This document shows positions 748-21,921 of a stretch of 64,000 nt of DNA, one piece after another. The first letter of the stretch is position 1, and each line of letters starts with the position of its first letter. Position numbers and translations under genes: made by a program. Source of the DNA: Lentisphaeria bacterium (lineage in GTDB: Bacteria; Verrucomicrobiota; Lentisphaeria; Victivallales; UBA1829); the NCBI GenBank assembly GCA_017646015.1, contig JAGCNI010000009.1, positions 10,535 to 74,534 on the forward strand. Reading direction: 5' to 3'. The notes beneath the pieces are model-generated. The model was given only the letters and a program-made list of their open reading frames with translations, was not told where the DNA came from and searched no databases.

Positions 748-774
748 GGGATTTTTCAGCAGAAAATACCATAT

Positions 775-819
775 TCAGACGGCGGACTCTCCGGAAACCG
801 CCGTCTGAGATTTTTATTT
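775..819 (+). terminator. Rho-independent terminator after dnaN
   Basis: Perfect 11 bp stem tcagacggcgg (775-785) / ccgccgtctga (798-808) with a 12 nt loop, followed by gatttttattt. Confidence 0.7.
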
Positions 820-828
820 GCAGAGAAT

Positions 829-1908
829 ATGCTGATCAGTGAATTGAAATTGGAAAACTTCCGTAATTTTCATCATGCGGATCTTGCTTTTTCATCTGAT
901 ATCATTTTGTTTACAGGTTCCAACGGACAGGGTAAAACCTCTCTGCTGGAAGCTGTTTTTTATCTTTCAACGCTGCGTTCTTTCCGTACATCCAGGATCA
1001 ATGAACTCCGGAAGATAGGAACAGCATCCTTTTCTCTTTCTTTATCTTTTCAGCGTGCGCCGGGGTGGAGATCTTTATTAGAGATCCGTGCAGGGGAGAA
1101 TCGTTTTTTATCGGTTGACCATGTTCCGGTAAGCCGTGCGAGTGATTTTACGGGAAAGATCAAAACGATTGCATTTCTGCCGGATGATCCTTTGATCATC
1201 AGTGGTTCTTCCATGTTGCGGCGGCGTTTTTTTGATATGTATATTTCCATGCTTGACCGGAATTATTTTACAGCTTTACAGAATTATTCCTCTGCTTTGC
1301 GTTCCCGGAATATTTTATTGAAAGATCATAAATGTGATCCTTCGATCCTTCATTCTTATTCTTCTGTTCTGGCGGCATCCGGTTCAGAAATTGTGCAGTT
1401 ACGGAAAAAATATACCGTGATTCTGGAAGAGGTGATGAAAGAGATCCTTTCAGAAATAGCTCCCGGACTGACTCATTTCCAGATCCGGATGCGTTACAAC
1501 CGGGAAACAGAAAATGCAGAGAGTTATTTGAATAAAGCTGTATCTGAATCCGGACGGGATATTCAGAAAGGATTTACTTCATTCGGGCCGCATCTGGATG
1601 ATTTTGAATTTATTTCAGATGGCAGATCTCTGCGGAATTTCGGTTCACGCGGGCAATGCCGCATTACTGCTTTGACCTTGAAACTGGCTCAGTTGGAAGC
1701 TGTACGTCAATCGCAGGGAGCATTGAAAGATACTGTTGTGCTGGTCGATGATGCCATGGCAGATCTGGATGAAAAAACACGGATCCTTTTTATGAACAGA
1801 ATTTCTTCTGCCGGTCAGCTCTTTTTTGCGTTTACCGAGATCCCACCGGAGTTTTCTTTTGAAAAAGCCGCTGAATTCAAAGTACAAAACGGAAATATCG
1901 TTTTTTGA
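829..1908 (+). CDS. recF: DNA replication and repair protein RecF
   Basis: N-terminus MLISELKLENFRNF plus Walker A GSNGQGKTSLLEA. C-terminal LVDDAMADLDEK Walker B-like signature. Position directly after dnaN. Confidence 0.9.
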   Translation: MLISELKLENFRNFHHADLAFSSDIILFTGSNGQGKTSLLEAVFYLSTLRSFRTSRINELRKIGTASFSLSLSFQRAPGWRSLLEIRAGENRFLSVDHVPVSRASDFTGKIKTIAFLPDDPLIISGSSMLRRRFFDMYISMLDRNYFTALQNYSSALRSRNILLKDHKCDPSILHSYSSVLAASGSEIVQLRKKYTVILEEVMKEILSEIAPGLTHFQIRMRYNRETENAESYLNKAVSESGRDIQKGFTSFGPHLDDFEFISDGRSLRNFGSRGQCRITALTLKLAQLEAVRQSQGALKDTVVLVDDAMADLDEKTRILFMNRISSAGQLFFAFTEIPPEFSFEKAAEFKVQNGNIVF

Positions 1909-1968
1909 TTTGATGTTTCTGTACTTGCAGGTTATATTAATGTACCAACAGAATGGAGAAAAAATATT

Positions 1969-3141
1969 ATGACCTTACGGGAAGCAGGCGAAAGATTTGA
2001 ACAGTTCTTTATTGAAGTGATCCGGGAACGGCGTCACGATTCCTTGAGTATGTATCTCAAAGGGATCCTGTTTGTGGCTTCACGTTTCTACCGCAGAGCT
2101 GTGCAGTTCCGTCTTTGGATGTATAACAACCGGGTGATCCGCAACCGTGCGATCGGATGTCTTGTGGTCAGTATCGGAAACGTTACCTGCGGCGGAACCG
2201 GAAAAACTCCTGTTGTGGAAGTCTTTGCCAGAACATTGAGCCAGAAAGGTCGTAAAGTTGCCATTCTCAGCCGGGGATACCGCAGCAAAAACCGTTCACT
2301 CCTTACAAAAATCAAGATGAAATTTTCCTCTGACAAAGGTGAAATTCCGCCCCGTGTTGTTTCAGACGGAAAAAATCTTCTGCTCGATTCCATTACCGCC
2401 GGGGATGAACCTTTCATGTTGGCTTCAAACTTGAAAAATGTTGCTGTTCTGGTCGATAAAGACAGAGTGAAATCCGGATTGTATGCTATCGAAAAATTCG
2501 GAACAGATACTCTGATTTTGGATGACGGGTTTCAATATCTTAACCTGAAAGCACATATCAATATTCTTCTGGTTGATTCCACTTCACCCTTTGATAATCA
2601 TCATGTTCTGCCGCGCGGATTGCTCCGGGAACCGATCAAAAATATCCGGCGGGCAGATTATATTTTCCTTACAAAATCAGATGGTTCAGCAAGACTGCGT
2701 CACTTGAAAGCATTTTTAAGACGTCAGAATCACATGGCTGAAATTATTGAATGTTGTCACAGACCGCAATATCTGGAAGATGTTTATGACCGTGGAAAAC
2801 AAATGCCTCTTTCGGCACTGAAAGGAAAACGTCTTGCTTCGATTTCTGCGATTGCAAATCCCGCCAGCTTCAATGGATTCCTTTCCGAACTGGGCGGAAA
2901 TATTGTCAAAGAAACTCATTTTGCCGATCATCACCGTTACCGTCAACAGGAAATGATCGACTTTATCAACGCTGCAAAAAATGCCGATGCAGAGTTGATC
3001 GTTACAACTGAAAAAGATGCTGTGCGTATGCCCCGTCTGGACAGACGGGATATTCCGATCGTTTTTCTCCGTGTACAGATTGATATTCTCAGCGGACAGG
3101 AAAACTTTGATCAGTGTATTTCCCGCATCTGTTTTATCTGA
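1969..3141 (+). CDS. lpxK: Tetraacyldisaccharide 4'-kinase (lipid A biosynthesis)
   Basis: P-loop GNVTCGGTGKTPVV, ILSRGY, DDGFQ, FADHHRY and TTEKDAVR blocks typical of LpxK. Confidence 0.85.
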   Translation: MTLREAGERFEQFFIEVIRERRHDSLSMYLKGILFVASRFYRRAVQFRLWMYNNRVIRNRAIGCLVVSIGNVTCGGTGKTPVVEVFARTLSQKGRKVAILSRGYRSKNRSLLTKIKMKFSSDKGEIPPRVVSDGKNLLLDSITAGDEPFMLASNLKNVAVLVDKDRVKSGLYAIEKFGTDTLILDDGFQYLNLKAHINILLVDSTSPFDNHHVLPRGLLREPIKNIRRADYIFLTKSDGSARLRHLKAFLRRQNHMAEIIECCHRPQYLEDVYDRGKQMPLSALKGKRLASISAIANPASFNGFLSELGGNIVKETHFADHHRYRQQEMIDFINAAKNADAELIVTTEKDAVRMPRLDRRDIPIVFLRVQIDILSGQENFDQCISRICFI

Positions 3142-3788
3142 AGAAAAAGTCTTGTTCCGGCACTGTCAGGCAGTTCAAAACATTCTGTGGCGCGGTATGG
3201 TCCTTTTTTCCATTTCTTCAGGAAAGGGATCTCCTGTTCATATTGTTCCGGTGTCCGGTAAATAATCAGTGATCCGTTGGCTTTCAGCATACCGCCAGCC
3301 TCTTTGACAAGGATATCCGCACTTGCGACCGCACGGGCAAAAATAACGTTGAAAGCAGCCCGGAAAGGCTCTTTTCTGCCCAATTCATTTCCACGTCCGT
3401 GGATCCCTTTGAGATTGTTGAGAGAAAGTTTTGCAGCGGCGGCATTGACATAATCGATTTTCTTGCGTGTGGAATCAATGGAAGTGATCCTTACTTCCGG
3501 AAAAGCGGCTGCCAGTACAAGGGATGGAAAACCTGCACCGCATCCGAGATCGCATAATTGCATTTCAGAAGTGAAGATTTCCGGAAAATAACGGCAAACG
3601 GAAAGAGAATCAGCCACATGACGGCTCCAGAAACCGTCTTCTTTGATCGCTGTAAGATTCAGATTTTGGTTTGTTTCGTACAGAAAATCTCCCAGCATCT
3701 TCATTTTTTCAATGAACTCCGCCGGATCTTTTTTCAAACATTCCTGAATGAAAACGAAAGAAGATTCAGAAGGATCAGAAATTATCAT
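3111..3788 (-). CDS. rsmG: 16S rRNA (guanine527-N7)-methyltransferase RsmG/GidB
   Basis: NLNLTAI, WSRHVADSL and SAM-binding DLGCGAGFPSLVLA motifs. Its 3' end overlaps the convergent lpxK 3' end by 31 nt. Confidence 0.85.
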   Translation of the reverse strand: MIISDPSESSFVFIQECLKKDPAEFIEKMKMLGDFLYETNQNLNLTAIKEDGFWSRHVADSLSVCRYFPEIFTSEMQLCDLGCGAGFPSLVLAAAFPEVRITSIDSTRKKIDYVNAAAAKLSLNNLKGIHGRGNELGRKEPFRAAFNVIFARAVASADILVKEAGGMLKANGSLIIYRTPEQYEQEIPFLKKWKKGPYRATECFELPDSAGTRLFLQIKQMREIH

Positions 3789-3789
3789 A

Positions 3790-4338
3790 TTACTTTTTTC
3801 CTATCAGTTGGATCAACAGGATCAATGCGGAAATTGACCACAGGATCGAAAAAACACTTCCGAGAAGACGCCAGCGGAAAGAATGACACATGGCACGGAA
3901 TGAATCACGGAGCCAATAAGGTTTTCCCCCGATAAAGATAGCATAAGTTCCTGCAATCAAAGATAATGCAGCAAAAAATCCACTGTATTTAAGATTGGCT
4001 GTGAAAGTTTCTGAAAGCATGGCGTGGACCAACAGGATCATTGCCCCGGCTGAGGATCTCGCAAAAAGATGATCCAGATACCGATAGCACAGAGCTGTAA
4101 GGATAACTGCCGCCGGAATCAACCAATACAGATTCTCTTCCGGAGAAAAAAGAGGTTTTACATTCGGAATAAATGCCAGTAATGCCAGTAATCCCGTGAT
4201 TCCTCCGGCTGTTTTATTTCTGGGCAGTTTTTCCCAGAAAGAGAGATTCTTTTCGTTCATTCGCAAAAACATTCCTGCTGTGAACAGAAAAAAGAGAAAA
4301 ATAAAACCGAGTCCAGCTTTCAATATCATTTTTATCAA
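3790..4338 (-). CDS. Multi-pass membrane protein, function unknown
   Basis: 182 aa with several long hydrophobic segments (GLGFIFLFFLFTAGMFL, GITGLLALLAFI, WLIPAAVILTALC, GFFAALSLIAGTYAIFI, LLGSVFSILWSISALILLIQLI). It sits 1 nt upstream of rsmG and 14 nt downstream of the PEGA gene. I recognise no family. Confidence 0.55.
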   Translation of the reverse strand: MIKMILKAGLGFIFLFFLFTAGMFLRMNEKNLSFWEKLPRNKTAGGITGLLALLAFIPNVKPLFSPEENLYWLIPAAVILTALCYRYLDHLFARSSAGAMILLVHAMLSETFTANLKYSGFFAALSLIAGTYAIFIGGKPYWLRDSFRAMCHSFRWRLLGSVFSILWSISALILLIQLIGKK

Positions 4339-4352
4339 GTTCCTGTGTGTTA

Positions 4353-5696
4353 TTATTCAACGATTTTCAAAAATTTTACTTCACTGATCTGACTCTTCCG
4401 GATCGTGTATTTCACGCCCGGCTGAGGTTCAAAAAGATACGAATCAGAAAGTGTCTGAATGATTTTTCCGGTTTCAGTATTTCCATCTTTCCGGGTAATA
4501 ATGGCATTGGGGATCCACAAAGAAAGATTATTCAAACGGACTGTTTCCCCTTTATTTACATTGAACTTGACCACTTTGCTGTTGGGTCTGCCGCGTTTGT
4601 GCGTGATTTTCAAAACGTGAGAACCGATACTGAGATTTTTGACCTTGAAGATCTTGGATGTACCGGGATTGGTCTTATCCGGTTCAGTGATACCGATCAT
4701 TTTTCCATCCAGATACAGAGTGACTCCGGAAGGTTGTGTCACAATATCCACACCGCCGGTATTACTGTCCAGATTCATGGTGATATCCAAATTCCCGCCT
4801 GCGGGCAGATTCAAAGTGCGTACCGCCGGATCAAATCCTGTTTTTTCAAGACGGATCGTATAGATCCCGGGTGTGAGATTTTCCAATTTGAGCGGAGTAT
4901 CTCCATAATGTTTATTGCCGATCAGGATTTTTGCCCCGGAAGGTCTGGAGGAAATTCTGATATTTCCGGGTTTCACTTCCAGAATCTGTTTTCTCAGAAA
5001 AGTGGTCTCTCCCCGTTTGATCTGTACGATACGGGTCAGAGGAAGATAACCCTCTTTGCGGAATTCAATGGTATGTCTTCCTTCTTCCAACTGTTCTTTG
5101 AAAGGAGTTATGCCGGTTTTTTTGTTATTCACATAAATATCAACATGGTCCGGAATCGTTGTTATATTGAGTGTTCCCTGATTGGAAGTGATATCTGTTT
5201 TCACCAGTTTCGGAACAGAAGAATCAATTTTCCAGGAAACTGTTTTACGGGTATAACCGTGACGGTATATTTCTGCTGTATATTCCCCGTGCGGCAGATC
5301 CCGTATGACAACCGGGGTGGATCCCAGTTCTTTCCCTTGAAAACGTACTGTTGCCTGTTCCGGTTCTGTCACGATCATAACAGAGGATGTTTCAGGTGCA
5401 AGTTCAAATTTGATCTTTTGATTGTTTCCCTGTTTGACTTCGATTTTCTGCCATAAAGGTTCATATTTTTCCTTGGAGACTTTGACGATATAGCTTCCGG
5501 GCGGAAGGCGGAAACTGACCGGAGCAGGAGTGAAAATATCATATCCGATGATTTCGATATCTGCTTTTTCAGGAATCGTATCAATCGCAATGACCGGTTT
5601 TTGGATCACCGCTTTTTTCTTACAGGAAACAGTCGGCAGAAGTAGAAAAACAACAGCTGCCGCAAAGAAAAAACGCATCAATACAGATTTGTTCAT
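4353..5696 (-). CDS. Secreted, probably lipidated protein with about five PEGA repeats
   Basis: Signal peptide ending LLLPTVSC. Repeated units are IDTIPEKADIEI, VMIVTEPEQATVRFQGKELGSTP, LNITTIPDHVDIYVNNKKTGITP, IRISSRPSGAKILIGNKHYGDTP and VDIVTQPSGVTLYLDGKMIGIT. Confidence 0.75.
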   Translation of the reverse strand: MNKSVLMRFFFAAAVVFLLLPTVSCKKKAVIQKPVIAIDTIPEKADIEIIGYDIFTPAPVSFRLPPGSYIVKVSKEKYEPLWQKIEVKQGNNQKIKFELAPETSSVMIVTEPEQATVRFQGKELGSTPVVIRDLPHGEYTAEIYRHGYTRKTVSWKIDSSVPKLVKTDITSNQGTLNITTIPDHVDIYVNNKKTGITPFKEQLEEGRHTIEFRKEGYLPLTRIVQIKRGETTFLRKQILEVKPGNIRISSRPSGAKILIGNKHYGDTPLKLENLTPGIYTIRLEKTGFDPAVRTLNLPAGGNLDITMNLDSNTGGVDIVTQPSGVTLYLDGKMIGITEPDKTNPGTSKIFKVKNLSIGSHVLKITHKRGRPNSKVVKFNVNKGETVRLNNLSLWIPNAIITRKDGNTETGKIIQTLSDSYLFEPQPGVKYTIRKSQISEVKFLKIVE

Positions 5697-5699
5697 AAG

Positions 5700-7085
5700 T
5701 TATCTCCTCCGTCCTTTTTTATTTTGGTTTGAAAGAAGACGTTCCAGCGCGATTTTATTATCTCTGATCTTGGAATACAAAGCTTCTTCCGGATCCAGCA
5801 TCATCAACAGTCTGCTGCATTCACTGATCGCTTCAGCATATTGTTTTTTCTGTAAATAAAGATTGGCATTGAAACGGATATCTTTGATCATTTTCTGCCG
5901 CAGATTTTCCGCTTCATTCAATTTCCGTTTTGCAATATCATAGTTGCGCGGCTTCGGATCAAACTGTTCCAGAAAATCCACTGTGATCTTGTAACGCATG
6001 ATTGCATTCCGCAGATTTTCCGGGCGCGCCTGATAATTTTGAAACAACTCTTCCGCTGTAACAAAAGAACGTTCCGCTTCTTCAAGCATCTCTTTTTCAG
6101 AAAGAGCGATCGTTTTCAGCCCGTGATCCTCTGCAAAACTTTCGATGGCATGTTCTATCTGTTCAAAAGAGGTGGGCGGATATGTATTCTGAATGATGAT
6201 ATTATTCAGATTGGTATTGTAACAAATGGTCATGGAACGGATTTCATCCACATCTCCATCGGGTTTTCCCGGCGGCTCATTCTTGATATTCATAAAGTTC
6301 GTATCTTTAACAGCATCCACAAGACGTTTGAGAATATCTTTTTCAAGTTCACCGATCCCTTTGGAAAAATGACGGCGTCCTTTCAGGTCATCCAATTTGA
6401 ATATGACTCCGTTATTTTCGATCCGGACATAAAAACGGAATACATTGTCTTTGGAGATCTGTTGTTTTTCATAGACCAGAAGAAATGGTATATTGATCTG
6501 TTTGCCGGCATTGCTGTTTTTATTTTTTTCCGGCGGATTATTCAACATGCCAAAGATCAGCAAACTGCCGCATGCAAGGATCGTAACCAGCAGGGCAAAC
6601 AACAGATTGGCAATTTTTTTCCGGCTGGAAGGTTCTTCCGCAGAGGTGGAAGGTTCTTCCTTTTTTCCGCCGAAAATATTGGTATTGACAGGAATCTGCT
6701 GAGTGCTTTTGCCTGGTTTTTCAAGTTCTTTGATCTTCAAAGGTGATGCAACAGGAGAAACAACTGTTGCCGGGGCATTTTTGGTTTCCATGAAACTTTC
6801 ATCAAATAATATGACCTGTTCCCCGATCTGGATCTCATCGCCTTTTTTCAATTTCTGCGGAGTTGTGATCTTCACACCGTTGATCTTGGTTCCGTTGGTA
6901 CTGCCGAGATCACAGATCTGCCAAATCTTTTCCGCTGTATTGTAGTCGATTTTTACATGATAACGGGAGATCCCCGGTGTGAGAAGTTGAATATCATTAT
7001 CTTCCTCACGTCCGATACAGATTCCCGGAGGAACCAGTTTCCAGTGTTCTCCTTTTTTATTCCCATTCAAAAAATAAAGATTCAT
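5700..7085 (-). CDS. FHA domain protein with one TM segment and a helical, TPR-like C-terminal region
   Basis: FHA signature ICIGREEDNDIQLLTPGISRYHVKI...ICDLGSTNGTKINGVKI...GDEIQIG. TM segment IANLLFALLVTILACGSLLIFGML. I prefer the start at ATG 7085 (MNLYFLNGNKKGEHW) because it forms an ATGA overlap with the DUF192 stop. The listed ORF extends to 7124. Confidence 0.75.
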   Translation of the reverse strand: MNLYFLNGNKKGEHWKLVPPGICIGREEDNDIQLLTPGISRYHVKIDYNTAEKIWQICDLGSTNGTKINGVKITTPQKLKKGDEIQIGEQVILFDESFMETKNAPATVVSPVASPLKIKELEKPGKSTQQIPVNTNIFGGKKEEPSTSAEEPSSRKKIANLLFALLVTILACGSLLIFGMLNNPPEKNKNSNAGKQINIPFLLVYEKQQISKDNVFRFYVRIENNGVIFKLDDLKGRRHFSKGIGELEKDILKRLVDAVKDTNFMNIKNEPPGKPDGDVDEIRSMTICYNTNLNNIIIQNTYPPTSFEQIEHAIESFAEDHGLKTIALSEKEMLEEAERSFVTAEELFQNYQARPENLRNAIMRYKITVDFLEQFDPKPRNYDIAKRKLNEAENLRQKMIKDIRFNANLYLQKKQYAEAISECSRLLMMLDPEEALYSKIRDNKIALERLLSNQNKKGRRR

Positions 7086-7459
7086 ACAGTTTCCTCTCTT
7101 TCCGCAGAAAATTCCGGACACCATTCAAATAAATCATTTTCCGCTGTTTTTGAAGTCATTATTTTTCCAACCGGTAACTCTATCACATAATAGGCATTTT
7201 TGCAATAGAGAAATGGCATCCATGGAGAAAAATTTGTAACAGTTTTCAGCACTTTCTTCTCTTTGGAGAGAAAAATGATGTCCAAAGGGATGCTCATGAA
7301 AAAAGTATGGATCGCGTTACAGCGGTCAAAAATCATCCCGTCAAAAGCAGAAAAATCCCGCCCGATCATCCCCCGTAAACGGTCTGAAAAACTTTCCGGA
7401 AAAAATCCGCGCAAAGCAACAGTTTCCTGTTTTGTCTTGTTGAATACGGAAAACATCAT
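7082..7459 (-). CDS. DUF192 domain protein
   Basis: RGMIGRDFSAFDGMIF...HTFFMSIPLDIIFLSKEKKVL...YVIELPVG matches the DUF192 pattern (GLMGR..GMLF...PLDIIF...LEL.aG). Confidence 0.7.
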   Translation of the reverse strand: MMFSVFNKTKQETVALRGFFPESFSDRLRGMIGRDFSAFDGMIFDRCNAIHTFFMSIPLDIIFLSKEKKVLKTVTNFSPWMPFLYCKNAYYVIELPVGKIMTSKTAENDLFEWCPEFSAEREETV

Positions 7460-7466
7460 ACTGCGA

Positions 7467-8339
7467 TCACACGGAAAGAGTTTGCATTGCCTGATACAGG
7501 ATCGGGGCGATCAGAATGATAAAAACAGATGGGAAAATAAACAATACCACCGGGAAAAGAATTTTGACTGGAGCTTCATTTGCCAGTGTTTCAGCCCGGG
7601 CAAAACGTTTCTGCCGCAGCTGATCCCCCTGGATCCGCAGAAGCTGACCGATCCCGACTCCCAGTTCATCCGCCTGAACAATGGCGTTGATCACAGAGGT
7701 CAGTTCCGGATGATGCAGACGTTCTGAAAGATCGCGCAAGGCTGTCTGACGCTGTTTCCCGAGTTGGATCTCATGCAGAGTCCGTTTCAATTCACTGCCC
7801 AGGATATCCTCCGGACGTCTTGCAAGAATATCACGCAGTGATGTCAGAAAATCTTTCCCCGCCTCCACCGATAATGTCAAAAGATCCAATACATTCGGCA
7901 GTGCCTTGAGAATGGAAAGATGCCGGAGCCGGATCGTTTTTTTCAACCAGGTCGTCGGATAAAGGATCATCACAAGAAAAAACAATATCCCCGGCAGCGG
8001 TTTGCCTCCGGCAGTAACCAGAATCAGAAAAAGTCCGCCCAGGATCCCAAGCATGATCCGGATCCCGTAAAATTGATCCACACTCAATGTTTGATCAAAT
8101 CCGGCACTCTGGATCATTTCTGCCGTGTTCCGGCGGGATATATTCAGAAATTCTTTTTTCGTGATGAAAGTGAAATTCCCTGCCAGCGGCAGACAGATCC
8201 GGAAAATCAACGGCAGTTTGCGGATCTCCAACTCTTCCGGAGGTGTATCAACTTCCACTTTTCCCAGAAGATCAGCAAGAAGCATGAAAAGACAGAATAC
8301 CGCTCCGCCCATACAGAAAGATGCAAGAATCGTAAACAT
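7467..8339 (-). CDS. tadC: Tad/Flp-type platform protein TadC (T2SS-F domain)
   Basis: 290 aa with an N-terminal TM, a cytoplasmic helical T2SSF-like domain (LPNVLDLLTLSVEAGKDFLTSL...) and two C-terminal TMs. It is the second of two such genes after cpaF. Confidence 0.8.
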   Translation of the reverse strand: MFTILASFCMGGAVFCLFMLLADLLGKVEVDTPPEELEIRKLPLIFRICLPLAGNFTFITKKEFLNISRRNTAEMIQSAGFDQTLSVDQFYGIRIMLGILGGLFLILVTAGGKPLPGILFFLVMILYPTTWLKKTIRLRHLSILKALPNVLDLLTLSVEAGKDFLTSLRDILARRPEDILGSELKRTLHEIQLGKQRQTALRDLSERLHHPELTSVINAIVQADELGVGIGQLLRIQGDQLRQKRFARAETLANEAPVKILFPVVLFIFPSVFIILIAPILYQAMQTLSV

Positions 8340-8351
8340 AACAGCTCCTCC

Positions 8352-9233
8352 TCAAATATCGATCGTGGTGATCTTCCGGATCACAAGAAAACCGGTTATA
8401 TCAAGAATGATCACAGCAATCAGACACAATATCCCCGGAACAGTCTTGAAAAAAGCATTCATCATATCCGGAGCAATATTCATCATCGCCAGAAACAACG
8501 CCAACGGCATCAGACCGATGATGACCGCCTGCATCCTTCCCTGTGCTGTCAACGCACGGATCCTGCCGGTAATGCGGACTCGTTCCCGGATCACAGCTGC
8601 AAGACGTTCCAGCGTGGCAGTCAATTCGCCTCCCGTTTGACGGGCTGTCATGATCGAAACAGCCACCAGTTCAAAGTCCTGACACTGCAGACGGTTGGAC
8701 ATTTTATTGAGAGCTTCATCCAAAGAAACTCCCAGGCGCAATTCCTGGATCAGCAGACTGAATTCTACTGAAATCGGTTTCCGGTTTTCACTTGCAATCA
8801 CTTCCAACGCCTGATTGATACTGAATCCCGCTTTCAATGAACTGCTGATGGAAAGCAACGCATCTTCCAACTGTTCATTGAATTTTTTGAGCCGCTGTTT
8901 TTTCAGATAACGCAGATAGATCCGCGGCAGGGGAAAAAATGCGATCGCTCCGAGCAAGCCCACAAGGATGATCCGGGAAACAGAGAGTTCTTTTGTAATG
9001 ATCCCGAGTGTGATCACAGCAAGAAAACCTCCTGCCGCTGCGATTGCCAGACTCAGATCCAGAATTCTGGCAGGGGACATGGTCAGCAGAATATCATCCG
9101 CTTCGATTGCTGTTTCACGGATATATTTCTCTTTGTAACGGTTTGAAAAAAGCTGCACAAAATATACGATCGTATAGGTCGCAAAAATCACCGCAAGTCC
9201 CGCACAGAAAGCTGCCAGTAAAGCAAATTTCAT
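8352..9233 (-). CDS. tadB: Tad/Flp-type platform protein TadB (T2SS-F domain)
   Basis: T2SSF-like domain (LEDALLSISSSLKAGFSINQALEVI...). ATGA overlap with the cpaF stop (9230-9233). Confidence 0.8.
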   Translation of the reverse strand: MKFALLAAFCAGLAVIFATYTIVYFVQLFSNRYKEKYIRETAIEADDILLTMSPARILDLSLAIAAAGGFLAVITLGIITKELSVSRIILVGLLGAIAFFPLPRIYLRYLKKQRLKKFNEQLEDALLSISSSLKAGFSINQALEVIASENRKPISVEFSLLIQELRLGVSLDEALNKMSNRLQCQDFELVAVSIMTARQTGGELTATLERLAAVIRERVRITGRIRALTAQGRMQAVIIGLMPLALFLAMMNIAPDMMNAFFKTVPGILCLIAVIILDITGFLVIRKITTIDI

Positions 9234-10957: not shown

Positions 10958-10978
10958 ATTCCGAACTCCTGCTGCATT

Positions 10979-11779
10979 TCAGCGGCCCTGCCGCATCATG
11001 CTTTCACGTTCCATATTGTATTTTTCGATATTCTTCTGAAGGTAATTCCAGTTGACATTCTGCAGTTTTCTGGTGATGGCTGACTCTTCATAGTTGCGGA
11101 GACTCAGATGGATCCGTCCTTTCTGTGTGGCAAAAATGATCATTTCCACTTCTTTCGGAGTCAATTCAAGTGTTACAGTGCTGTATCCGCTGGAACGGGT
11201 GTTGTATGTTCCGTTTCCGGAAAGCAAGCCCATATCCGTGCCGGTGGCGATCACACGGACACGCTGAAGGATCGTGAGCGTAGTTGTATCCAGAGAACTG
11301 TCTCCTTTGGCATCCGGAAAACGGAATGTTCCGATCAGGTCAACATAATTGTTCGGCTGCACCAGCCCTGTGACAGAACTGGTTGCATCGACCGGGATCG
11401 AAATTGCACGGTATCCGGGACGGATCTGTGCTGTAAGTCCGCTTCTGCCGGAGGAGAAAGAGGTCTTCAAATCTGTCCATTGCAGAATGGTTCCGGCGGG
11501 GATCAGAGATCTTACTTCTCTGCCGATCACCATATTCCGGCGGTCATATTCAATTTCTCTGCCCATGGCTTCTTTGCTGAAACGTTTGATCTTGATCTCC
11601 CGGATCGCATCTTCTGTGATCTTTTCGTTTTCACCCAGATCGCGTGTCACCTGAATCAGATAGACATCCTGTGCCTCTCCGTGGATCTTCGATTTTTCTA
11701 TATTGATCTGATGAAAAGTGAACATAAATGCAAGCACTCCGAAAAAAACCGCACCCAAAAGTAAAAGTTTCTGTTTCAT
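10979..11779 (-). CDS. cpaB: Flp pilus assembly protein CpaB/RcpC-like (SAF domain)
   Basis: N-terminal TM anchor (LLLLGAVFFGVLAFMF). SAF-like segment VIGREVRSLIPAGTILQWTDL followed by a beta-rich RcpC-like region. Position directly upstream of cpaF. Confidence 0.75.
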   Translation of the reverse strand: MKQKLLLLGAVFFGVLAFMFTFHQINIEKSKIHGEAQDVYLIQVTRDLGENEKITEDAIREIKIKRFSKEAMGREIEYDRRNMVIGREVRSLIPAGTILQWTDLKTSFSSGRSGLTAQIRPGYRAISIPVDATSSVTGLVQPNNYVDLIGTFRFPDAKGDSSLDTTTLTILQRVRVIATGTDMGLLSGNGTYNTRSSGYSTVTLELTPKEVEMIIFATQKGRIHLSLRNYEESAITRKLQNVNWNYLQKNIEKYNMERESMMRQGR

Positions 11780-11856
11780 AAATTCATATCCTTGTTCAAT
11801 ATTGTTGTTGATCTTCTTGATTCAGGAATATACACGGTATAAAAGCGTTTCGCAAA

Positions 11857-14406
11857 TCAAAGTTCACTTTTTTTTCGTATATATCGCTCATGAAAGAGGT
11901 CTGTTGTATATTTCAATACTTCCAGTGCCATGCCGGACTCCTGTTCCGTGATCTCTCTGCTGCTGTATTCCGCTTTGTAGAACAACAGAAATACAGCTCT
12001 GGTTTTTTCCCCGAGAAGACTGTTCTCAAAGGATAACATTTCTGCATATTCTGTCAATTCCGGATTCCCTTTCCGTTCCAGCCCGAGGAGTTCCAGATAC
12101 AAAATAATTGCACGGTAAGAGAAAAGTACAGAATCCCGCGGAGAACTTTTCTCTTTCTCCTCCGCTTTCCTGTAAAACTTTTCTGCCAGAGAAAGTTTGC
12201 GTTTTTGTTTCCGGGCGCAGAAAAGAATGGTTCCGAACTTATACAGAGAATAGAGCAGCGATCCGGTCAGGATCAGTAACAGCCAGGTTGAAAAAACAAG
12301 ATCGTATATCCCGGCAACGATATTTTTGAATTGATCAACGATTTTCCGGTAGAGCATTTTCAGTTTGTAAAGAAATCCGCCTTCCTTTTTCTGACGGTCT
12401 ATCTTTTTCACTGTTTTCCGGTATTGATTTTTTACATTTTCACGCACTTTCTCTTCTGTCACGACCGCATGGATCAATGCCTGATCAATGGGATTGATTT
12501 CTTTCCGTTTCTCTTCCTGTTCCAGAATTTTTTTCCGTAAAAGATCCTGTGTTTTCCGGGTGAGTTCAGGGGGAGTGACTTTCCATTCATCCCCGAATGG
12601 ATCCCGCAGTTGTCCGATCCCGGCAGGTTTGGTTTCAGAACGGACAGAAGAGGGTGGCGTACCATCCATTGTCAGCCAGCCGGCATTGTCAATAAAAATC
12701 TGTGTCCACGCATGGGCATGATATTCATAGACTTCATATTTGTTGTTCAATGTGTTATAGTTGCCGGGAGAAAATCCGGTGGCTACCCGGGCGGGCAGAC
12801 CGACAGATCGTGCCATAACAGCCAATGCCGCAGCGTAATATTCACAATGACCTTCTTTCAATTCAAACAGAAAATAATCCACACATTCGCGTCCTTTGGG
12901 GAGCGGGGCAGCATCCAGTTTGTATTTGTAATTATTCCGCAGATGATCCCGCAAGGCAATCGCTTTGGCATACGGTGTCCCCGCTTTTTCTGTAATCCTT
13001 TTTGCCAGTGAAAGAACTCTTTTGGAGATTTTTCCTTTGGGCAGTTTGCAATAATGGGCAGGTGATAATGGATCTCTCCATTTCCGGTAGAGATTCTTTT
13101 TCTTTCCGCCGGATCCCTGATCCTCCTTTTTCAAGAGTTTTTCGGGATCATCCAACAGCGGAAGCGACACATCTGCCGTATAGATAAAGGGCATTTGCTG
13201 AATCTTTTTTTTCTGCCGGATCCCATAGAAAGTCATGGTGAAATTACGGAGTATATTGGTATAATTTTCATTCGATGGAGTGAATCCGATCAGCCTGAAT
13301 CCGGAATAGAGAGAGGTGGAAATATTTTTGAGCAGATAATATTTCTGAGCAATCATCTGTTCCACAGGTTCTTTTTCAGATGTGACTTTATAATAACGGG
13401 CACGCATCAATTCTTTTCCGGCTTTCCATTTCGTTCCGTCGTAAATATCATACAGTCGTGCCAAATGATAGGTCGTTACCGGTGTTTGAACATGAAATAC
13501 AAGATCCTGTCCTTGCGAAGATCCTCCCCCGTCACCATCTATAAAATTCTTAGTATCAGCAGGTTTATCACTCTTGACAGGAGTCCCTTTGCTGTCGATC
13601 GTGTGTACGGTTTTTTCCGCAGGCTTTTCAAATTTCCCATCCGGAGAAGTTTTCAATCTGACCGGATTCAGCCACTTCTGAATATCCGGCGGCAGAGCAG
13701 AATCACGGTTCGTCAGAAAAGAGGTTTCAAACAATCCCGGAAGATCATTGTTTTCCAGAGGCATCAGAGAAAAGATGTTCCAAAACAGAAAGAGTGTCAG
13801 GAAAAGATGGATCATGATACGCACCAGATCGATCTTCAAAGATTTTCTTTCCCGTATGACCGGCTTGCCCGCAAAGTTTTCTTTCCGCAGATTCCAGGCG
13901 AGAAACAGAAACAGCAGAAGCGATGCTGTTTCCATGTAGAGAAAAGTCATCCGCGGGATCAGGGAGCCATAGATCAACAGAAAAAGAGAAATGAAAAAAA
14001 GATAACAGTAATCTTTTATTTTCCCGCCCATCAGAAATACAAGTGCTGCTCCGCTCAGGATTTCCACCATGACCAAATCCGGCAGAGTATTTTTGAGCCG
14101 GAAGACTCCCCACGTAACTGCCATTGCAAAAATCAATGCATTCAAAATGATCCTTGCCCATGAGTTAAAGCAGCGGTATGGTACATAAACCATTGCCGCA
14201 CACGGAAAAACAAGAATCATCAATAGAAATGTAAAACGCGGATCGCTGTGCTGCCACAATGCTCCCCCTGACGTCAGAAGAAAAAGAAGCGCAAATAACC
14301 AGTGAAAACGGCTGTGCCGCGGAGAACGGAGCATCCGGGAACGATTCGTTATGATCGTTTTGGAAAGGGTGTCAGACCGCTTCTTCATCGTTGAAAATTC
14401 CTTCAA
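11857..14406 (-). CDS. Transglutaminase-like (TgpA-like) multi-pass membrane protein
   Basis: N-terminal polytopic membrane region. Transglutaminase core EGHCEYYAAALAVMARSVGLPARVATGF...HAWTQIF...MDGTP (Cys-His-Asp). C-terminal TM plus helical tail. An alternative start is at 14388 (MKKRSD). Confidence 0.8.
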   Translation of the reverse strand: MKEFSTMKKRSDTLSKTIITNRSRMLRSPRHSRFHWLFALLFLLTSGGALWQHSDPRFTFLLMILVFPCAAMVYVPYRCFNSWARIILNALIFAMAVTWGVFRLKNTLPDLVMVEILSGAALVFLMGGKIKDYCYLFFISLFLLIYGSLIPRMTFLYMETASLLLFLFLAWNLRKENFAGKPVIRERKSLKIDLVRIMIHLFLTLFLFWNIFSLMPLENNDLPGLFETSFLTNRDSALPPDIQKWLNPVRLKTSPDGKFEKPAEKTVHTIDSKGTPVKSDKPADTKNFIDGDGGGSSQGQDLVFHVQTPVTTYHLARLYDIYDGTKWKAGKELMRARYYKVTSEKEPVEQMIAQKYYLLKNISTSLYSGFRLIGFTPSNENYTNILRNFTMTFYGIRQKKKIQQMPFIYTADVSLPLLDDPEKLLKKEDQGSGGKKKNLYRKWRDPLSPAHYCKLPKGKISKRVLSLAKRITEKAGTPYAKAIALRDHLRNNYKYKLDAAPLPKGRECVDYFLFELKEGHCEYYAAALAVMARSVGLPARVATGFSPGNYNTLNNKYEVYEYHAHAWTQIFIDNAGWLTMDGTPPSSVRSETKPAGIGQLRDPFGDEWKVTPPELTRKTQDLLRKKILEQEEKRKEINPIDQALIHAVVTEEKVRENVKNQYRKTVKKIDRQKKEGGFLYKLKMLYRKIVDQFKNIVAGIYDLVFSTWLLLILTGSLLYSLYKFGTILFCARKQKRKLSLAEKFYRKAEEKEKSSPRDSVLFSYRAIILYLELLGLERKGNPELTEYAEMLSFENSLLGEKTRAVFLLFYKAEYSSREITEQESGMALEVLKYTTDLFHERYIRKKSEL

Positions 14407-15604
14407 GATCGGTTTGACAGGTCAAAAGAAGCGGTTTGATTTCGCCTGTTTTTCTGGTTTCCTGCGGTAAACAGAATACAAGTTCTTCATCATCAATTAT
14501 ATAAGGAAAACAATCTTTCGGAGCGTGGATCCATTGCAGAACGATCTGTTGATCTTCCAGCAGAGAGAGCATCTGACGGAGTTTGACGGAGTCCGTCATT
14601 CCCAGAAAACAGACCACTGTGCCGGGGGATAAGGTTTCCAGAATCTCTCCGATCAAAGTTTCCACCTGCCCTTTTGACGGAACGATTTCCGTCAGAATTT
14701 CCTGTATTTTTGTGCGTATCCCTGCCGCATCTCCGCTGGTTTGAAAGATTTCTCCGTCATGACGGGTGATAAAAGTCAGGTGACAATACCGTGACGAAAG
14801 ATATTCCGTCACAGAGGCGGCAAGCGTGATGAGTTTTTCAAAATTGTTTTCGACCGGATCATTGCCCACTGCGGCAAGCGTGGTATCCAGGATCAATACG
14901 ATCTTATCCACTGCCGCCGCTTCAAACTCCCGCACCATCAACTGGTTTTTGGAGGCACTCAACCGCCAATGCACAAAACGCATCTCATCTCCGGCACGGT
15001 ACGGACGGATTCCGAAAAAGTCATTGCCCTGTCCCACATGTCCCAGAGATCTGCCTTCCCTGTTGACAGAATGACCGCTGGTGCAGGCGTATGGAAAAGA
15101 GGAAAGCAGAACTGTTTTCGGCACGATGCTGATCTCTCCGGGACATTTGAAGACTTTGACAGTCTTGAAGATGCCGCACGGATCCCCGCCGGAAATCCGG
15201 ATCTTCCGCAAACAGAAATGTCCTCTGCGGCAACTGACCGTTTCCCGCTGTAAGGTGACAGATCCTTTCGGCGGCAGAGAGGGAATCTCCCACGCCGTCA
15301 CTTTTTCCGTCACAAAGGGAATTTGTTCCGTCAGAATCAAAGATTGACGAAACCATGGCAGGTGATTGGTGATAACGAGCGGCAGAACAACTTTTTCCAT
15401 AGATTTTCCATCCGGCATATTTTCGCGGCGGAGTGAAATTCCGGCAGTGGAAAAGAAAGACATCAGGAAACTGGAAATGGTGACAGCACAGAAAACAGAT
15501 GCAGTCAGAGCCGTGATCAATCCCACATTCATCAGAGCCACTCCAACAGAAACGGCAGTAATGATCAGGAAAAGAAGCCCTCCGGGAGTCGGACGGGGAA
15601 ACAT
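14372..15604 (-). CDS. DUF58 domain protein (MoxR partner)
   Basis: Two N-terminal TMs and the DUF58 signature FFGIRPYRAGDEMRFVHWRLSASKNQLMVREFE. It shares base 15604 with the upstream MoxR gene. Confidence 0.75.
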   Translation of the reverse strand: MFPRPTPGGLLFLIITAVSVGVALMNVGLITALTASVFCAVTISSFLMSFFSTAGISLRRENMPDGKSMEKVVLPLVITNHLPWFRQSLILTEQIPFVTEKVTAWEIPSLPPKGSVTLQRETVSCRRGHFCLRKIRISGGDPCGIFKTVKVFKCPGEISIVPKTVLLSSFPYACTSGHSVNREGRSLGHVGQGNDFFGIRPYRAGDEMRFVHWRLSASKNQLMVREFEAAAVDKIVLILDTTLAAVGNDPVENNFEKLITLAASVTEYLSSRYCHLTFITRHDGEIFQTSGDAAGIRTKIQEILTEIVPSKGQVETLIGEILETLSPGTVVCFLGMTDSVKLRQMLSLLEDQQIVLQWIHAPKDCFPYIIDDEELVFCLPQETRKTGEIKPLLLTCQTDLEGIFNDEEAV

Positions 15605-16932
15605 CAGACAGGATCCTCGTTTTTCAGTTTGATGGAGTTGACAATGGTATCAAGGACCTGTTCCACACTTTTCCATTCTGTCCGGCTGCGGAGCTTCAGA
15701 CGCAAACGGTGTGCGAGGACAAGGTTCAGCATTTCTCTGACATCTTTTGGGGTGACATAGTCTCTGCCGTTGTAGGCGGCAAGGCTCTGGCAGCTGCGCA
15801 TGACAGCCAGCGAAGCACGCGGGCTGCAACCATTGACCAGAGCGGGATGTTCCCGTGTGGCATTTGCGATCCGGACAATATAATCTTTGATCTGCGGGGA
15901 AACTTTGACTTTACGGATCAGTGCCTGACAATATACGACGTCATTGCTCTTGATGACGTAGGAGATACTGTTCAGCGGATGGGATGCGAGCTGAGAATCC
16001 AAAATTTCCAATTCTGCCTGTGGACTCGGATAACCGATATTCAGACACATTGTGAAACGGTCAAGCTGAGGTTCCGGCAGCGGATAAGTGCCATGATAAT
16101 CTTCCGGGTTCTGGGTCGCTATCACAAAAAACGGTTTCGGCAGAACATGCGCCTTTCCGTCAATTGTGACGGAAGATTCCGACATACATTCCAGAAGACT
16201 TGATTGAGTTCGCGGAGTGGTCCGGTTGATTTCATCTGCCAGAATCACATTCCCGAAAATCGGACCCGGCAGAAAACGGAAAGTTCCCGTCATTTCATCG
16301 TATATATTGGTTCCAGTGATATCTGACGGAAGCATATCGGGAGTAAATTGGATCCGGCGGTAGCGGGATTGGATCGACTTTGCCAGTGTTTGTGCCAGCA
16401 GACTTTTTCCGACACCGGGTGCATCTTCCAACAGGAGATGACCATCTGCCAGCAGGCAGACGATCAGGTTTCGGATCACATTCGGATTTCCCTTGAAAAC
16501 AGTGGCAATATTGCTTTCCAGCTGCCGGATGACCTGACGGAGCATCTCAAAATTCAGATTGTCTTCTGAAAAATTTCCCCAACTGTTGCCGGATTGACTG
16601 GTTTCAACAGTACCGGGATTGTTATATACCATCATGACTCCGCCAATCTGAATAATATCCTGATGTTTAAGGAGTTGTGAAACAACAGGCTGGGAATTGA
16701 CAAAGGTCCCGTTTGCACTGCTCAGATCCTTGATGATGAAACCGTCCCGCTCCCGGCTGAACATGGCATGACGGCGGGATACATTCCGGTCTGCAATCGA
16801 GATCTCACATTCCGGCTCCCGCCCCATCACAGCAGTATTGCAGTCCAATTCAAATTCTCTGCTTTGCCCGTATCCTTCCTGAATGACAAGGAATGGATTT
16901 TCATGTTTCTGGTTTATTTTTGTTTCCCCCAT
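15604..16932 (-). CDS. FHA domain fused to a MoxR-family AAA+ ATPase
   Basis: N-terminal canonical FHA (VMGREPECEISIADRNVSRRHAMF...IKDLSSANGTFVNSQP...DIIQIGG). MoxR core LLEDAPGVGKS (Walker A), ILADEINRTTPRTQSSLLE (Walker B), ATQNPEDYHGTYPLPEPQLDRF. Confidence 0.85.
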   Translation of the reverse strand: MGETKINQKHENPFLVIQEGYGQSREFELDCNTAVMGREPECEISIADRNVSRRHAMFSRERDGFIIKDLSSANGTFVNSQPVVSQLLKHQDIIQIGGVMMVYNNPGTVETSQSGNSWGNFSEDNLNFEMLRQVIRQLESNIATVFKGNPNVIRNLIVCLLADGHLLLEDAPGVGKSLLAQTLAKSIQSRYRRIQFTPDMLPSDITGTNIYDEMTGTFRFLPGPIFGNVILADEINRTTPRTQSSLLECMSESSVTIDGKAHVLPKPFFVIATQNPEDYHGTYPLPEPQLDRFTMCLNIGYPSPQAELEILDSQLASHPLNSISYVIKSNDVVYCQALIRKVKVSPQIKDYIVRIANATREHPALVNGCSPRASLAVMRSCQSLAAYNGRDYVTPKDVREMLNLVLAHRLRLKLRSRTEWKSVEQVLDTIVNSIKLKNEDPV

Positions 16933-16965
16933 GACAGTATTGCTTTCTCTTCAAGGTGGTTGATC

Positions 16966-18078
16966 TTACTGTTTTTTTTCCTCTTCGCCTTCCTCATCTT
17001 CCTCATCTTCCATTTCGATGCCGTGTGCTTCAAACATGTTACGCAGGTCTTTACGGTCGATGGCACGGAACATGGCTTCTTCGGGAGCGACGATTCCTTT
17101 TTCGACGACTTCAAAGAGACTTGTATTGAGAGTACGCATCCCCTGTTTTGTTCCGGTCTGCAGCACGGATTCGATCTGGAAGATTTTATTTTCACGGATC
17201 AAGTTGGAAACAGCGGAGTTGACGACGAGGATTTCGAGAGCGGCGATACGGCCTTTTCCGATACGTTTGCAGAGAGTCTGAGCGACGACACCTTTGAGAG
17301 AACCGGCGAGCATGGCACGGATCTGAGCCTGACGGTTTGCGGGGAACTGCTGAATGATACGGTCCACGGTACTGGCGGCAGTGGTGGTATGCAGAGTTCC
17401 GAAAACCAGGTGTCCGGTTTCTGCTGTTTCCAGAGCGATTTCCACCGTTTCCAAGTCACGCATTTCCCCGACCAGCACGATATCCGGGTCTTCACGGAGG
17501 GCTGCACGCAGAGCATTTGCAAAGCTCATGGTATGGCGTCCGACTTCGCGGTGGTTGATAAGGCATTTATTACTTTTATGCACGAATTCGACAGGGTCTT
17601 CGATGGTGATGATATGGTCGGTTCGGATACGGTTGATATAGTCGACCATGGCGGCGAGGGTTGTTGATTTCCCGGAACCGGTAGGTCCTGTAACCAGCAC
17701 CAGACCTTTGTTCAAGGTACACAGGTTGGCGACGACCGGTGGCAGGTTGAGCTGTTCAAATGTCAGAATATTTGCCGGAATGAGTCGGGCGACGATACCC
17801 ACACCGTTCAAGTCGCGGAAGATATTGACACGGAAACGGTCTCCTGTCGGCAGAGAGTATGCCAAGTCGGTATCATTGATTTGTTTGAACTGATCGATAT
17901 TACGCTGGGGCATGATTTCAAATGCCATTGCTTCGATTTCTTCACTGGTCAACGGTTCTGATTCGGTAAAGACCATTTCACCGTCAATACGGTATGCAAC
18001 CGGCATGTTACTGCTTATGTGCGTATCGGAAGCACGCTGTTCCAACATGAAATACAAATATACATCGATATCCGGCAT
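16966..18078 (-). CDS. pilT: Type IV pilus retraction ATPase PilT family, with an acidic C-terminal tail
   Basis: Walker A GPTGSGKST, ITIEDPVEF, LVGEMRDLET, His box GHLVFGTLHT, and the AIRNLIRE-like SNLIRENK. The tail is EMEDEEDEEGEEEKKQ. Confidence 0.9.
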   Translation of the reverse strand: MPDIDVYLYFMLEQRASDTHISSNMPVAYRIDGEMVFTESEPLTSEEIEAMAFEIMPQRNIDQFKQINDTDLAYSLPTGDRFRVNIFRDLNGVGIVARLIPANILTFEQLNLPPVVANLCTLNKGLVLVTGPTGSGKSTTLAAMVDYINRIRTDHIITIEDPVEFVHKSNKCLINHREVGRHTMSFANALRAALREDPDIVLVGEMRDLETVEIALETAETGHLVFGTLHTTTAASTVDRIIQQFPANRQAQIRAMLAGSLKGVVAQTLCKRIGKGRIAALEILVVNSAVSNLIRENKIFQIESVLQTGTKQGMRTLNTSLFEVVEKGIVAPEEAMFRAIDRKDLRNMFEAHGIEMEDEEDEEGEEEKKQ

Positions 18079-18129: not shown

Positions 18130-18157
18130 ACAATAGCACGGGATTGTCTGTTTTCAA
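18130..18157 (-). promoter_or_regulatory. Candidate sigma70-type promoter upstream of pilT
   Basis: On the minus strand, TTGAAA (18157-18152), a 16 nt spacer, then TATTGT (18135-18130), about 50 nt upstream of the pilT ATG. Sequence match only. Confidence 0.25.
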
Positions 18158-21867: not shown

Positions 21868-21921
21868 GAGTGTGCGGGTGTGGGGAAACTGTTGTTTTTT
21901 TTCCGGAATTCTTCTTTGGAA

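Follow-up and report, generated by a model that had tools for sequence, protein, structure and literature searches.

A thirteen-gene Lentisphaerae array as a probable lineage-specific juxtaposition of an FHA-MoxR/transglutaminase unit and a Kil-like Tad unit

A stretch of 64,000 nucleotides (nt) from a Lentisphaeria bacterium (contig JAGCNI010000009.1; hereafter the window) carries thirteen open reading frames (ORFs) in a row on the minus strand, at 3111-18078. The array joins pilT, a triad of FHA-fused MoxR, DUF58 and transglutaminase (TGase) genes, and a motor and platform of the tight adherence (Tad) type with an accessory tail. An earlier note on this DNA, whose coordinates are reproduced here, had suggested that the thirteen genes may form a single envelope machine. 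The array is probably instead a lineage-specific head-to-tail juxtaposition of Lentisphaerae (Victivallales-type) transcription units that are conserved separately. These are module A, from pilT to the TGase gene, and module B+C, in which B denotes cpaB to the DUF192 gene and C the genes that follow, from that for an FHA protein with a transmembrane segment (FHA/TM) to rsmG. To take gene adjacency as proof of one machine is tempting but wrong, and its removal leaves two units that can each be tested.

The junction and the transcription units

The junction between the TGase gene and cpaB is unique to the lineage of the window. No Tad gene lies within 10 kb of module A in any of about 90 other loci, and in none of about 12 other loci with the Tad block is a MoxR or TGase gene found upstream of cpaB. 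A metagenome scan with the TGase alignment yielded 80 more loci, about 55 of which have an intact FHA.MoxR-DUF58-TGase triad; tblastn of cpaB, cpaF, tadB, tadC, DUF192, FHA/TM and PEGA on these 80 loci, with 10-kb flanks, gave zero matches. TGase orthologues at 40-46% identity lie on five long contigs in the order pilT-FHA.MoxR-DUF58-TGase, followed by unrelated opposite-strand genes. Conservation of this junction was the test on which the earlier note had staked the single machine; as module A and the Tad genes adjoin in this lineage only, the idea fails by its own measure. The junction is nevertheless present in six independent assemblies (L001-L006), in which the 3' end of the TGase gene lies directly upstream of an identical cpaB. 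Scaffolds from ENA, one k141 contig and two contigs from Logan make up the six, and their samples and assemblers differ.

The Tad side of the junction has a conservation of its own. The seven-gene block cpaB-FHA.cpaF-tadB-tadC-DUF192-FHA/TM-PEGA is intact in six relatives (L013, L014, L017, L021, L177 and L178) and partial at contig ends in four more (L018, L020, L022 and L025), and its order holds down to 27% identity in the FHA/TM protein. The ATGA overlap between the DUF192 and FHA/TM genes is usually kept, and genes for a small membrane protein and RsmG are often next. In L178 (54% identity), the window's nine genes and a convergent lpxK are reproduced exactly, but an opposite-strand LacI gene lies 5' of cpaB. 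Conservation of the tadC-DUF192-FHA-PEGA tail, the other arrangement that the earlier note wished to see checked, extends to at least eight further loci. The block can also be divided. Among the closest relatives, whose CpaB is 83% identical, a fructose-bisphosphate aldolase gene on one side and a convergent Rce1-like gene on the other enclose a stand-alone operon of five genes, cpaB to DUF192, and this operon and module A occur on one 113.7-kb contig, about 20 kb apart and in opposite orientation. The FHA/TM-PEGA-membrane protein-rsmG genes are likewise found alone in L012, L015 and L019. The arrangement from cpaB to PEGA is ancestral, with secondary splitting in some relatives.

Each module is preceded by a conserved promoter-like site. 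That located 5' of pilT (18130..18157, minus strand) reads TTGAAA-16-TATTGT with TG ahead of the second hexamer; its hexamers are invariant in eight aligned loci (the window, L007-L010, L117, L124 and L129) and its flanks diverge. The second site (11827..11855, minus strand; TTGCGA-17-TATATT) lies within the 77-nt gap between the TGase gene and cpaB. Both hexamers also occur 5' of cpaB in L095 and L096, where cpaB heads a stand-alone operon and where a 16-nt spacer of diverged sequence separates them. These motifs point to at least two transcription units, one running from pilT to the TGase gene and one from cpaB to rsmG, each presumably transcribed from its own site. The stand-alone FHA/TM-PEGA loci carry a further site of their own, TTGACC-17-TATATT. 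In the window this site is lacking, and translation of the FHA/TM gene is coupled to that of DUF192. A hairpin scan returned 22 terminator-like structures versus 19.5 +/- 4.9 in shuffles; all minus-strand ones are within coding sequence, and none lies between array genes, in agreement with the earlier note.

The spacings and domain contents first reported likewise hold, every domain call being reproduced by Pfam and NCBIfam. Thus, pilT and the MoxR gene are 33 nt apart, the MoxR and DUF58 genes share one base, and DUF58 overlaps the TGase gene by 35 nt if a TTG start is used or by 17 nt if the ENA gene call is followed. Beyond the 77-nt gap, cpaB and cpaF are separated by 21 nt, cpaF and tadB share an ATGA overlap, tadB and tadC are 12 nt apart, and tadC precedes DUF192 by 7 nt, or by 52 nt with the ENA start. 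The ATGA overlap of DUF192 with the FHA/TM gene requires the ATG at 7085 rather than the first in-frame ATG at 7124, and the public gene call also starts there. The last three intervals are 3 nt (FHA/TM to PEGA), 14 nt (PEGA to the membrane protein gene) and 1 nt (membrane protein gene to rsmG). The starts of the TGase, DUF192 and membrane protein genes could sit a few codons further in.

The FHA-MoxR/DUF58/TGase module

Module A (18078-11857, minus strand as for all array genes) opens with pilT (16966..18078), which specifies a type IVa pilus retraction ATPase (T2SSE E 4e-52). Its TIGR01420 score of 458 bits, against a subfamily cut-off of 319, identifies a true member of the PilT/PilU family. 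The next gene (15604..16932) encodes a MoxR AAA+ ATPase fused to an FHA domain (FHA 6e-19, AAA_3 8e-59, AAA_lid_2 5e-21) that has canonical GR..SRRH..NGT motifs, and the fusion is kept in about 55 further loci, that is, in all triad loci found. DUF58 (14372..15604), the vWA-like MoxR partner, scores 32 bits against a cut-off of 23.4 and has an N-terminal hydrophobic segment at residues 5-56, roughly two transmembrane helices; its gene invariably lies between those for FHA-MoxR and TGase. The TGase (11857..14406) is a TgpA-like membrane transglutaminase/cysteine protease (Transglut_core 4e-25). Its match to PDB 6g49, a structure whose deposited name is protein-glutamine gamma-glutamyltransferase, has E 1.4e-17. 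The protein has six hydrophobic segments, of which the N-terminal ones fall within residues 55-208 and one more at 695-715. GHCEY, HAHAW and D575 do not vary among 15 orthologues, C515, H557/H559 and D575 constituting the Cys/His/Asp triad, and the orthologues carry TgpA_N.

In the proposed mechanism, transcription of module A from the site 5' of pilT would supply a cytoplasmic FHA-MoxR remodeller whose FHA domain binds phosphothreonine, a membrane-anchored, vWA-like DUF58 adaptor and a polytopic TgpA-like transglutaminase, with the PilT retraction ATPase as a clade-specific operon partner. By analogy with Pseudomonas TgpA and the kinase-linked bifidobacterial PFNA cluster, module A would be an AAA+/vWA-like/transglutaminase envelope module that responds to Ser/Thr phosphorylation and cross-links or processes envelope proteins. 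The earlier statement that such triads normally form an operon of their own is confirmed by the other triad loci.

PilT was considered as a general integral part of module A, and this was rejected: only the nearest clade (L007-L011, L117, L124, L125, L129 and L130) has the gene co-directional with FHA-MoxR and immediately 5' of it, and in about 45 more distant triad loci it is missing from that position. A different arrangement occurs in human-gut contigs (L100, at 3463-5661 on the minus strand, and also L110, L113, L115 and L118), in which a 732-amino-acid ORF contains two PilT-like T2SSE domains fused in tandem and is divergent from genes for dUTPase, an AmiC-type amidase, FHA-MoxR, DUF58 and TGase. 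The DNA 5' of the pilT promoter-like site also varies. In L007-L011 (4010-6190, plus strand) it contains a Glycos_transf_4 gene and a gene for a conserved protein of about 720 amino acids that has no Pfam family, both co-directional, and in the window the same place is occupied by a C26 glutamine amidotransferase gene and leuDC.

The triad has the same gene order and domain set (AAA_3 MoxR, DUF58 and a polytopic Transglut_core protein) as those of Pseudomonas aeruginosa TgpA and of the bifidobacterial PFNA cluster, and the Cys/His/Asp triad is intact in the array TGase. The PFNA cluster joins MoxR/DUF58/TGase to a Ser/Thr kinase (PMC8430577), and so also ties its triad to Ser/Thr-phosphorylation signalling. 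Unlike in these systems, the FHA domain is here fused directly to MoxR, kinase and FN3 genes are lacking, and pilT leads the unit in one clade. The FHA-fused triad offers a direct handle on how Ser/Thr phosphorylation might control MoxR-transglutaminase modules, which are poorly understood.

A second operon, of the canonical Bat-like kind, lies in the window at 38516-42567 (minus strand), with genes for an FHA-less MoxR (41455-42567), DUF58 (40548-41429), a 322-amino-acid protein without a family (39559-40527) and BatA/VWA (38516-39562). This MoxR and the FHA-MoxR of the array share only 37% identity; the genome therefore keeps two distinct MoxR systems.

The Tad core and its accessory tail

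Module B+C (11779-3111) contains four components that place it with the Tad/Flp (type IVc) systems, CpaF, TadB, TadC and CpaB/RcpC. CpaB/RcpC (10979..11779; RcpC 4e-27), the inner-membrane-anchored periplasmic alignment-ring protein of Tad systems, scores 149 bits with the TIGR03177 equivalog against a cut-off of 71 and has an N-terminal hydrophobic segment. CpaF/TadA (9230..10957; T2SSE 2e-64), the motor ATPase, matches Caulobacter CpaF structures with 423 bits (E 1e-125); among NCBIfam models, TIGR03819 of the TadA family fits it best, with 347 bits falling just under the cut-off of 373. The platform is divided between two half-size T2SSF proteins, a TadB type of 293 amino acids with hydrophobic segments (8352..9233; T2SSF 2e-19) and a TadC type of 290 amino acids (7467..8339; T2SSF 6e-13).

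The motor begins with a degenerate FHA domain (residues 6-95; FHA 4e-5, Yop-YscD_cpl 8e-6), and such a fusion of FHA to CpaF has been described before, as class III (PMC12019362). Eight of eight aligned Lentisphaerae-type CpaF proteins (window, L013, L014, L017, L021, L025, L095 and L177) have lost the GR Arg of this domain, reading VGS, VGT or VGA there, and several are also without the Ser of SxxH and without NGT. CpaF of L079, from an uncultured GC-rich bacterium, retains GR...SSHH...NGT. The degenerate domain suggests a phospho-independent role in the motor.

The tail adds three accessory proteins. The DUF192 protein (7082..7459; DUF192 3e-13) is predicted to be cytoplasmic, as no signal peptide was found in four orthologues, and its gene follows tadC in eleven loci (L013, L014, L017, L018, L020-L022, L025, L095, L177 and L178). 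The FHA/TM protein (5700..7085; 461 amino acids; FHA 5e-19) consists of a canonical FHA domain in which GR, SRYH and STNGT are all invariant, a disordered linker, one TM helix and a periplasmic domain. The PEGA-repeat protein (4353..5696; PEGA 4e-52) matches in four stretches, corresponding to four to five repeats; in five of five orthologues its signal peptide ends in Cys, as predicted for a lipoprotein, and in the loci examined its gene always directly follows that for FHA/TM. Behind it come a small polytopic membrane protein (3790..4338; 182 amino acids, three hydrophobic segments) that has no match in Pfam or NCBIfam, and RsmG (3111..3788; GidB 1e-31), a 16S rRNA m7G methyltransferase encoded convergently with lpxK. 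The gene for the membrane protein is present in L012, L014-L018, L021 and L178 and absent from L013 and L177; rsmG at the tail and convergent lpxK recur in L012, L178 and L179. rsmG is a housekeeping passenger of the operon tail.

The FHA/TM protein was modelled with AlphaFold2 (pLDDT 82 for the whole protein, 90 for the C-terminal domain). The periplasmic domain is modelled as an alpha/beta platform followed by helical repeats. Foldseek with the full-length model found FHA domains only, hence the C-terminal domain was modelled alone. The best match of this domain was Mago nashi (1p27_A, E 6e-5, TM-score 0.66 normalised to the target), which was rejected as a functional clue, the resemblance being one of fold only, and no component of a type IV filament or of a type II or type III secretion system was matched. 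A profile of the domain finds 632 clusters (50% identity) at E<=1e-3 and 397 at E<=1e-10. Among the best 150 listed, the domain is at the C-terminal end, and those of full length have about 410-650 amino acids. The few members with a taxon name are from Lentisphaerae or Victivallaceae, and ten distant members gave one Victivallaceae.

As proposed, module B+C would be expressed from its own site in the 77-nt gap and would build the inner-membrane/periplasmic sub-assembly of a Kil-like Tad pilus, in which the CpaB ring, the FHA-CpaF motor and the TadB/TadC platform are joined by cytoplasmic DUF192, bitopic FHA/TM and the PEGA lipoprotein, with the small membrane protein and RsmG specified at the tail. 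Phosphothreonine signalling, if it acts on the Tad part, probably enters via the FHA/TM protein rather than the motor; the FHA domain of that protein would read the signal and its periplasmic domain would contact the PEGA lipoprotein.

The remaining parts of a Tad system are absent in cis, as the earlier note had observed. The N-terminal motif of Flp or TadE occurs in no frame of the 64-kb window, nor did Pfam match these families among the window ORFs scanned. Peptidase_A24 (TadV/CpaA) is found neither among those ORFs nor in the annotated neighbourhoods of L013, L014, L177 and L178. The window has no secretin domain, and tblastn with the L079 secretin drew a blank there and in all fetched loci. 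For TadZ/CpaE, no CbiA/ParA-type gene is present in the array or window; a CbiA/AAA_26 gene after PEGA in L177 appears BioD-like because it lies among biotin genes. On our assumption, the genes for these missing parts (pilin, prepilin peptidase and secretin) most likely lie elsewhere in the genome, as in the split Kil system. CpaB/RcpC is known as a periplasmic conduit that docks on the secretin (PMC12307814), and its retention here argues for an existing secretin partner. The window also encodes a type IV pilin-like protein with N_methyl and DUF1559 domains (49593-50354, plus strand), of a kind typical of bacteria of the Planctomycetes-Verrucomicrobia-Chlamydiae (PVC) group, in a glycoside-hydrolase neighbourhood; the genome thus makes use of proteins with class III signal peptides, and a PilD-type peptidase is probably encoded somewhere in it.

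Pilus genes do accompany related cores. In L079 (3929-11485, plus strand) an Flp pilin gene (Flp_Fap E 3e-6) accompanies cpaB, a gene for a BON/pilus-N/secretin protein, FHA-cpaF, tadB and tadC, together with an FHA/TM homologue that is 34% identical over nearly its full length. The secretin gene is located between cpaB and cpaF, the FHA/TM homologue directly after tadC, and there is no DUF192 or PEGA gene. This relative of the system looks complete and may be an evolutionary intermediate towards Kil-type loci. In L025, a Lentisphaeria metagenome-assembled genome, an Flp-like ORF (QTIVEY; RRYQTIVEYILIIAVVVV...) and two TadE-like ORFs lie at 54-1461 (minus strand), divergent from cpaB; these have no Pfam match, and the evidence for them is at the level of motifs. 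When the pilins of L079 and L025, the TadG/TadE-like proteins of L100 and the secretin of L079 served as tblastn queries, nothing but the queries themselves was recovered, a result that is uninformative for the pilins because pilins diverge too fast.

In gene content and domain architecture, module B+C most resembles the FHA-rich, split Kil Tad system of Myxococcus xanthus, where KilF is fused to FHA, FHA proteins including an FHA+TPR protein are encoded beside the platform genes kilB-kilG-kilH, the genes are split over two loci, the secretin has a BON domain and no TadZ is listed among the cluster genes (PMC8460266). The array likewise has a motor with an N-terminal FHA domain, though degenerate, and an extra FHA protein encoded near the platform genes (compare MXAN_4648/4649 and KilD), here two genes after tadC. 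TadZ is missing from the window, the components would be spread over separate loci, and the architecture of KilC, BON/pilus-N/secretin, is that of the relative L079. Unlike Kil, the array is without a secretin, peptidase or pilin in cis (the BON-type secretin, an Flp-like KilK and the minor pilins are all absent from the window), adds DUF192, the bitopic FHA/TM protein with its Mago-like periplasmic domain and the PEGA lipoprotein, and has lost the phosphate-binding Arg of the motor FHA. The hosts differ too: Kil-like systems were reported as confined to predatory delta-proteobacteria (PMC8460266), whereas the Lentisphaerae concerned are known here from metagenomes only (human gut, fermentation and others).

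With the canonical Tad/Flp loci of Caulobacter (Cpa) and Pseudomonas (Rcp/Tad), the array shares CpaF, TadB, TadC and CpaB/RcpC in the usual order. Unlike these, it has extra FHA, DUF192 and PEGA genes, and Flp, TadV/CpaA, RcpA/CpaC, TadZ/CpaE, TadE/F/G and TadD are missing from the locus and the 64-kb window. A DUF192 gene at the 3' end of Tad operons, following the platform genes, has a precedent in Erysipelotrichales and Helcococcus (PMC12786226), but those loci are from monoderms, have pilins and peptidase in cis, and encode a coiled-coil protein after DUF192 where the array has FHA/TM and PEGA. The Tad part has precedents in the FHA-CpaF class (PMC12019362) and in Kil, where cpaB, platform and FHA-protein genes are combined by the same logic (PMC8460266). 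Nothing specific on a Lentisphaerae Tad or FHA system was found in the literature. What is new here is a Lentisphaerae variant of the FHA-rich Tad core with an accessory tail and an FHA-fused variant of the triad, neither unit being categorically new. The Kil-like FHA-rich core appears to be widespread in Lentisphaerae, its signature FHA/TM family comprising about 400-600 clusters at 50% identity. If such cores occur in non-predatory gut and anaerobic PVC bacteria, FHA-controlled Tad machines would have a broader role, and DUF192, FHA/TM and the PEGA lipoprotein would form a defined accessory set for structural work.

Alternative readings and genomic setting

Several points weigh against two juxtaposed units of the kind described. 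The pilin, peptidase and secretin of this genome were not found in the locus or the 64-kb window, and the likeness to Kil is one of gene content and domain architecture. Loss of the phosphate-binding Arg from the CpaF FHA domain makes phospho-control of the motor itself doubtful. As no terminator separates modules A and B, read-through co-transcription may occur in this strain. A shared signalling input could be the reason why one array has three FHA domains and two type IV filament ATPases, and two loci, L031 and L100, hint at a loose, recurrent proximity of the kinds of module.

The first alternative is that the block from cpaB to PEGA is a complete machine that has neither pilin nor secretin, the Tad motor and platform having been repurposed, for example, for signal-gated export or envelope remodelling via FHA/TM and PEGA. 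It would account for a block that at least eight loci keep intact, down to 27% identity, with none of the genes for pilin, peptidase, secretin or TadZ in cis, for the degenerate motor FHA, and for an FHA/TM periplasmic domain that belongs to a large family of its own (the 632 clusters) and has no structural match to type IV filament components. Retention of CpaB/RcpC, with its known role as a bridge to the secretin (PMC12307814), argues the other way, as do the Flp-type genes beside the same core in L079 and L025, accompanied in L079 by a secretin gene, and the TadG/TadE-like genes elsewhere in related contigs; moreover, split Tad loci are known, Kil being one (PMC8460266). This alternative is considered unlikely. 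Slightly harder to accept is a more specific form, in which the seven-gene block would be a self-sufficient Tad-derived inner-membrane motor that extrudes no Flp pilus through a secretin, performs a different, phosphothreonine-gated envelope task in Lentisphaerae of the gut and the environment and has, in one strain, come under the transcriptional influence of FHA-MoxR/TGase.

It is also improbable, though it deserves consideration, that modules A and B+C are separate operons of one phosphothreonine regulon, served by a shared Ser/Thr kinase through the FHA domains of MoxR and FHA/TM, the fusion in this strain reflecting that link. Both FHA domains have canonical phosphothreonine-binding motifs, and relatives have modules A and B on one 113.7-kb contig and A and C on one 370-kb contig. 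Precedents are the PFNA cluster, with its tie between MoxR/DUF58/TGase and a Ser/Thr kinase (PMC8430577), and the FHA-based signalling cascade proposed by the Kil authors (PMC8460266). Opposed to these are the lack of any kinase or phosphatase gene in the window, the weakness of co-occurrence inside one bacterial class as evidence, and the frequency of FHA domains in unrelated contexts. Thus, when contigs were scanned with a profile from the FHA/TM alignment, 71 of 80 loci were discarded as unrelated FHA proteins (of Actinomycetota, Chloroflexota, Planctomycetota and others) because the search patterns came from the FHA domain, and tblastn revealed no neighbouring Tad, MoxR or PEGA genes at those FHA-only loci.

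The original proposal, that the thirteen genes are one co-expressed envelope machine in which the AAA+/transglutaminase module and PilT are coupled to the CpaF/TadBC motor-platform, is now very unlikely. The tight spacing, the lack of an intergenic terminator, a junction that is real in six assemblies, the FHA domains in both halves and the loose proximities in L031 and L100 are in its favour, but they are opposed by the absence of the junction from about 90 other module A loci and from every other Tad-block locus examined, by the conserved promoter-like site in the 77-nt gap, and by the inconstancy of pilT even within module A. The two proximities are as follows. In L031 (1581-9872), genes for RseP, FHA/TM-like, PEGA, 351-amino-acid and YHS proteins are convergent with a canonical MoxR-DUF58-TgpA triad, FHA-less and pilT-less, and kdtA. 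In L100 (15743-18993, minus strand), genes for a TadG-like protein that scores above the PF13400 cut-off, for a TadE-like protein and for a 196-amino-acid protein without assignment are convergent, 3-4 kb downstream of the module A TGase gene. The L100 cluster was considered as a link between module A and Tad and rejected, being absent by tblastn from sister contigs. The residual links between the halves are reason to keep the shared regulon as a low-probability alternative, but do not speak for a single machine. Finally, a chimeric metagenome assembly joined at the TGase/cpaB gap, for which the source, a metagenome scaffold, and the uniqueness of the junction among relatives might speak, is rejected because the six independent assemblies, of different samples and assemblers, share the junction.

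If the array is a juxtaposition of separate units, its setting may be relevant. It lies beside dnaN-recF-lpxK (103-3141, plus strand) and is therefore origin-proximal, and near-origin rearrangements could account for the meeting of the modules. The arrangement of genes around dnaN varies among relatives (L008/L012 and L178). The cumulative GC-skew minimum falls at about 12-16 kb and gene strand changes at about 20.8 kb. At this switch from minus to plus orientation are three tandem EamA-like transporter paralogues (20953-23987, plus strand), each of 304 amino acids and 60-65% identical to one another at the protein level.

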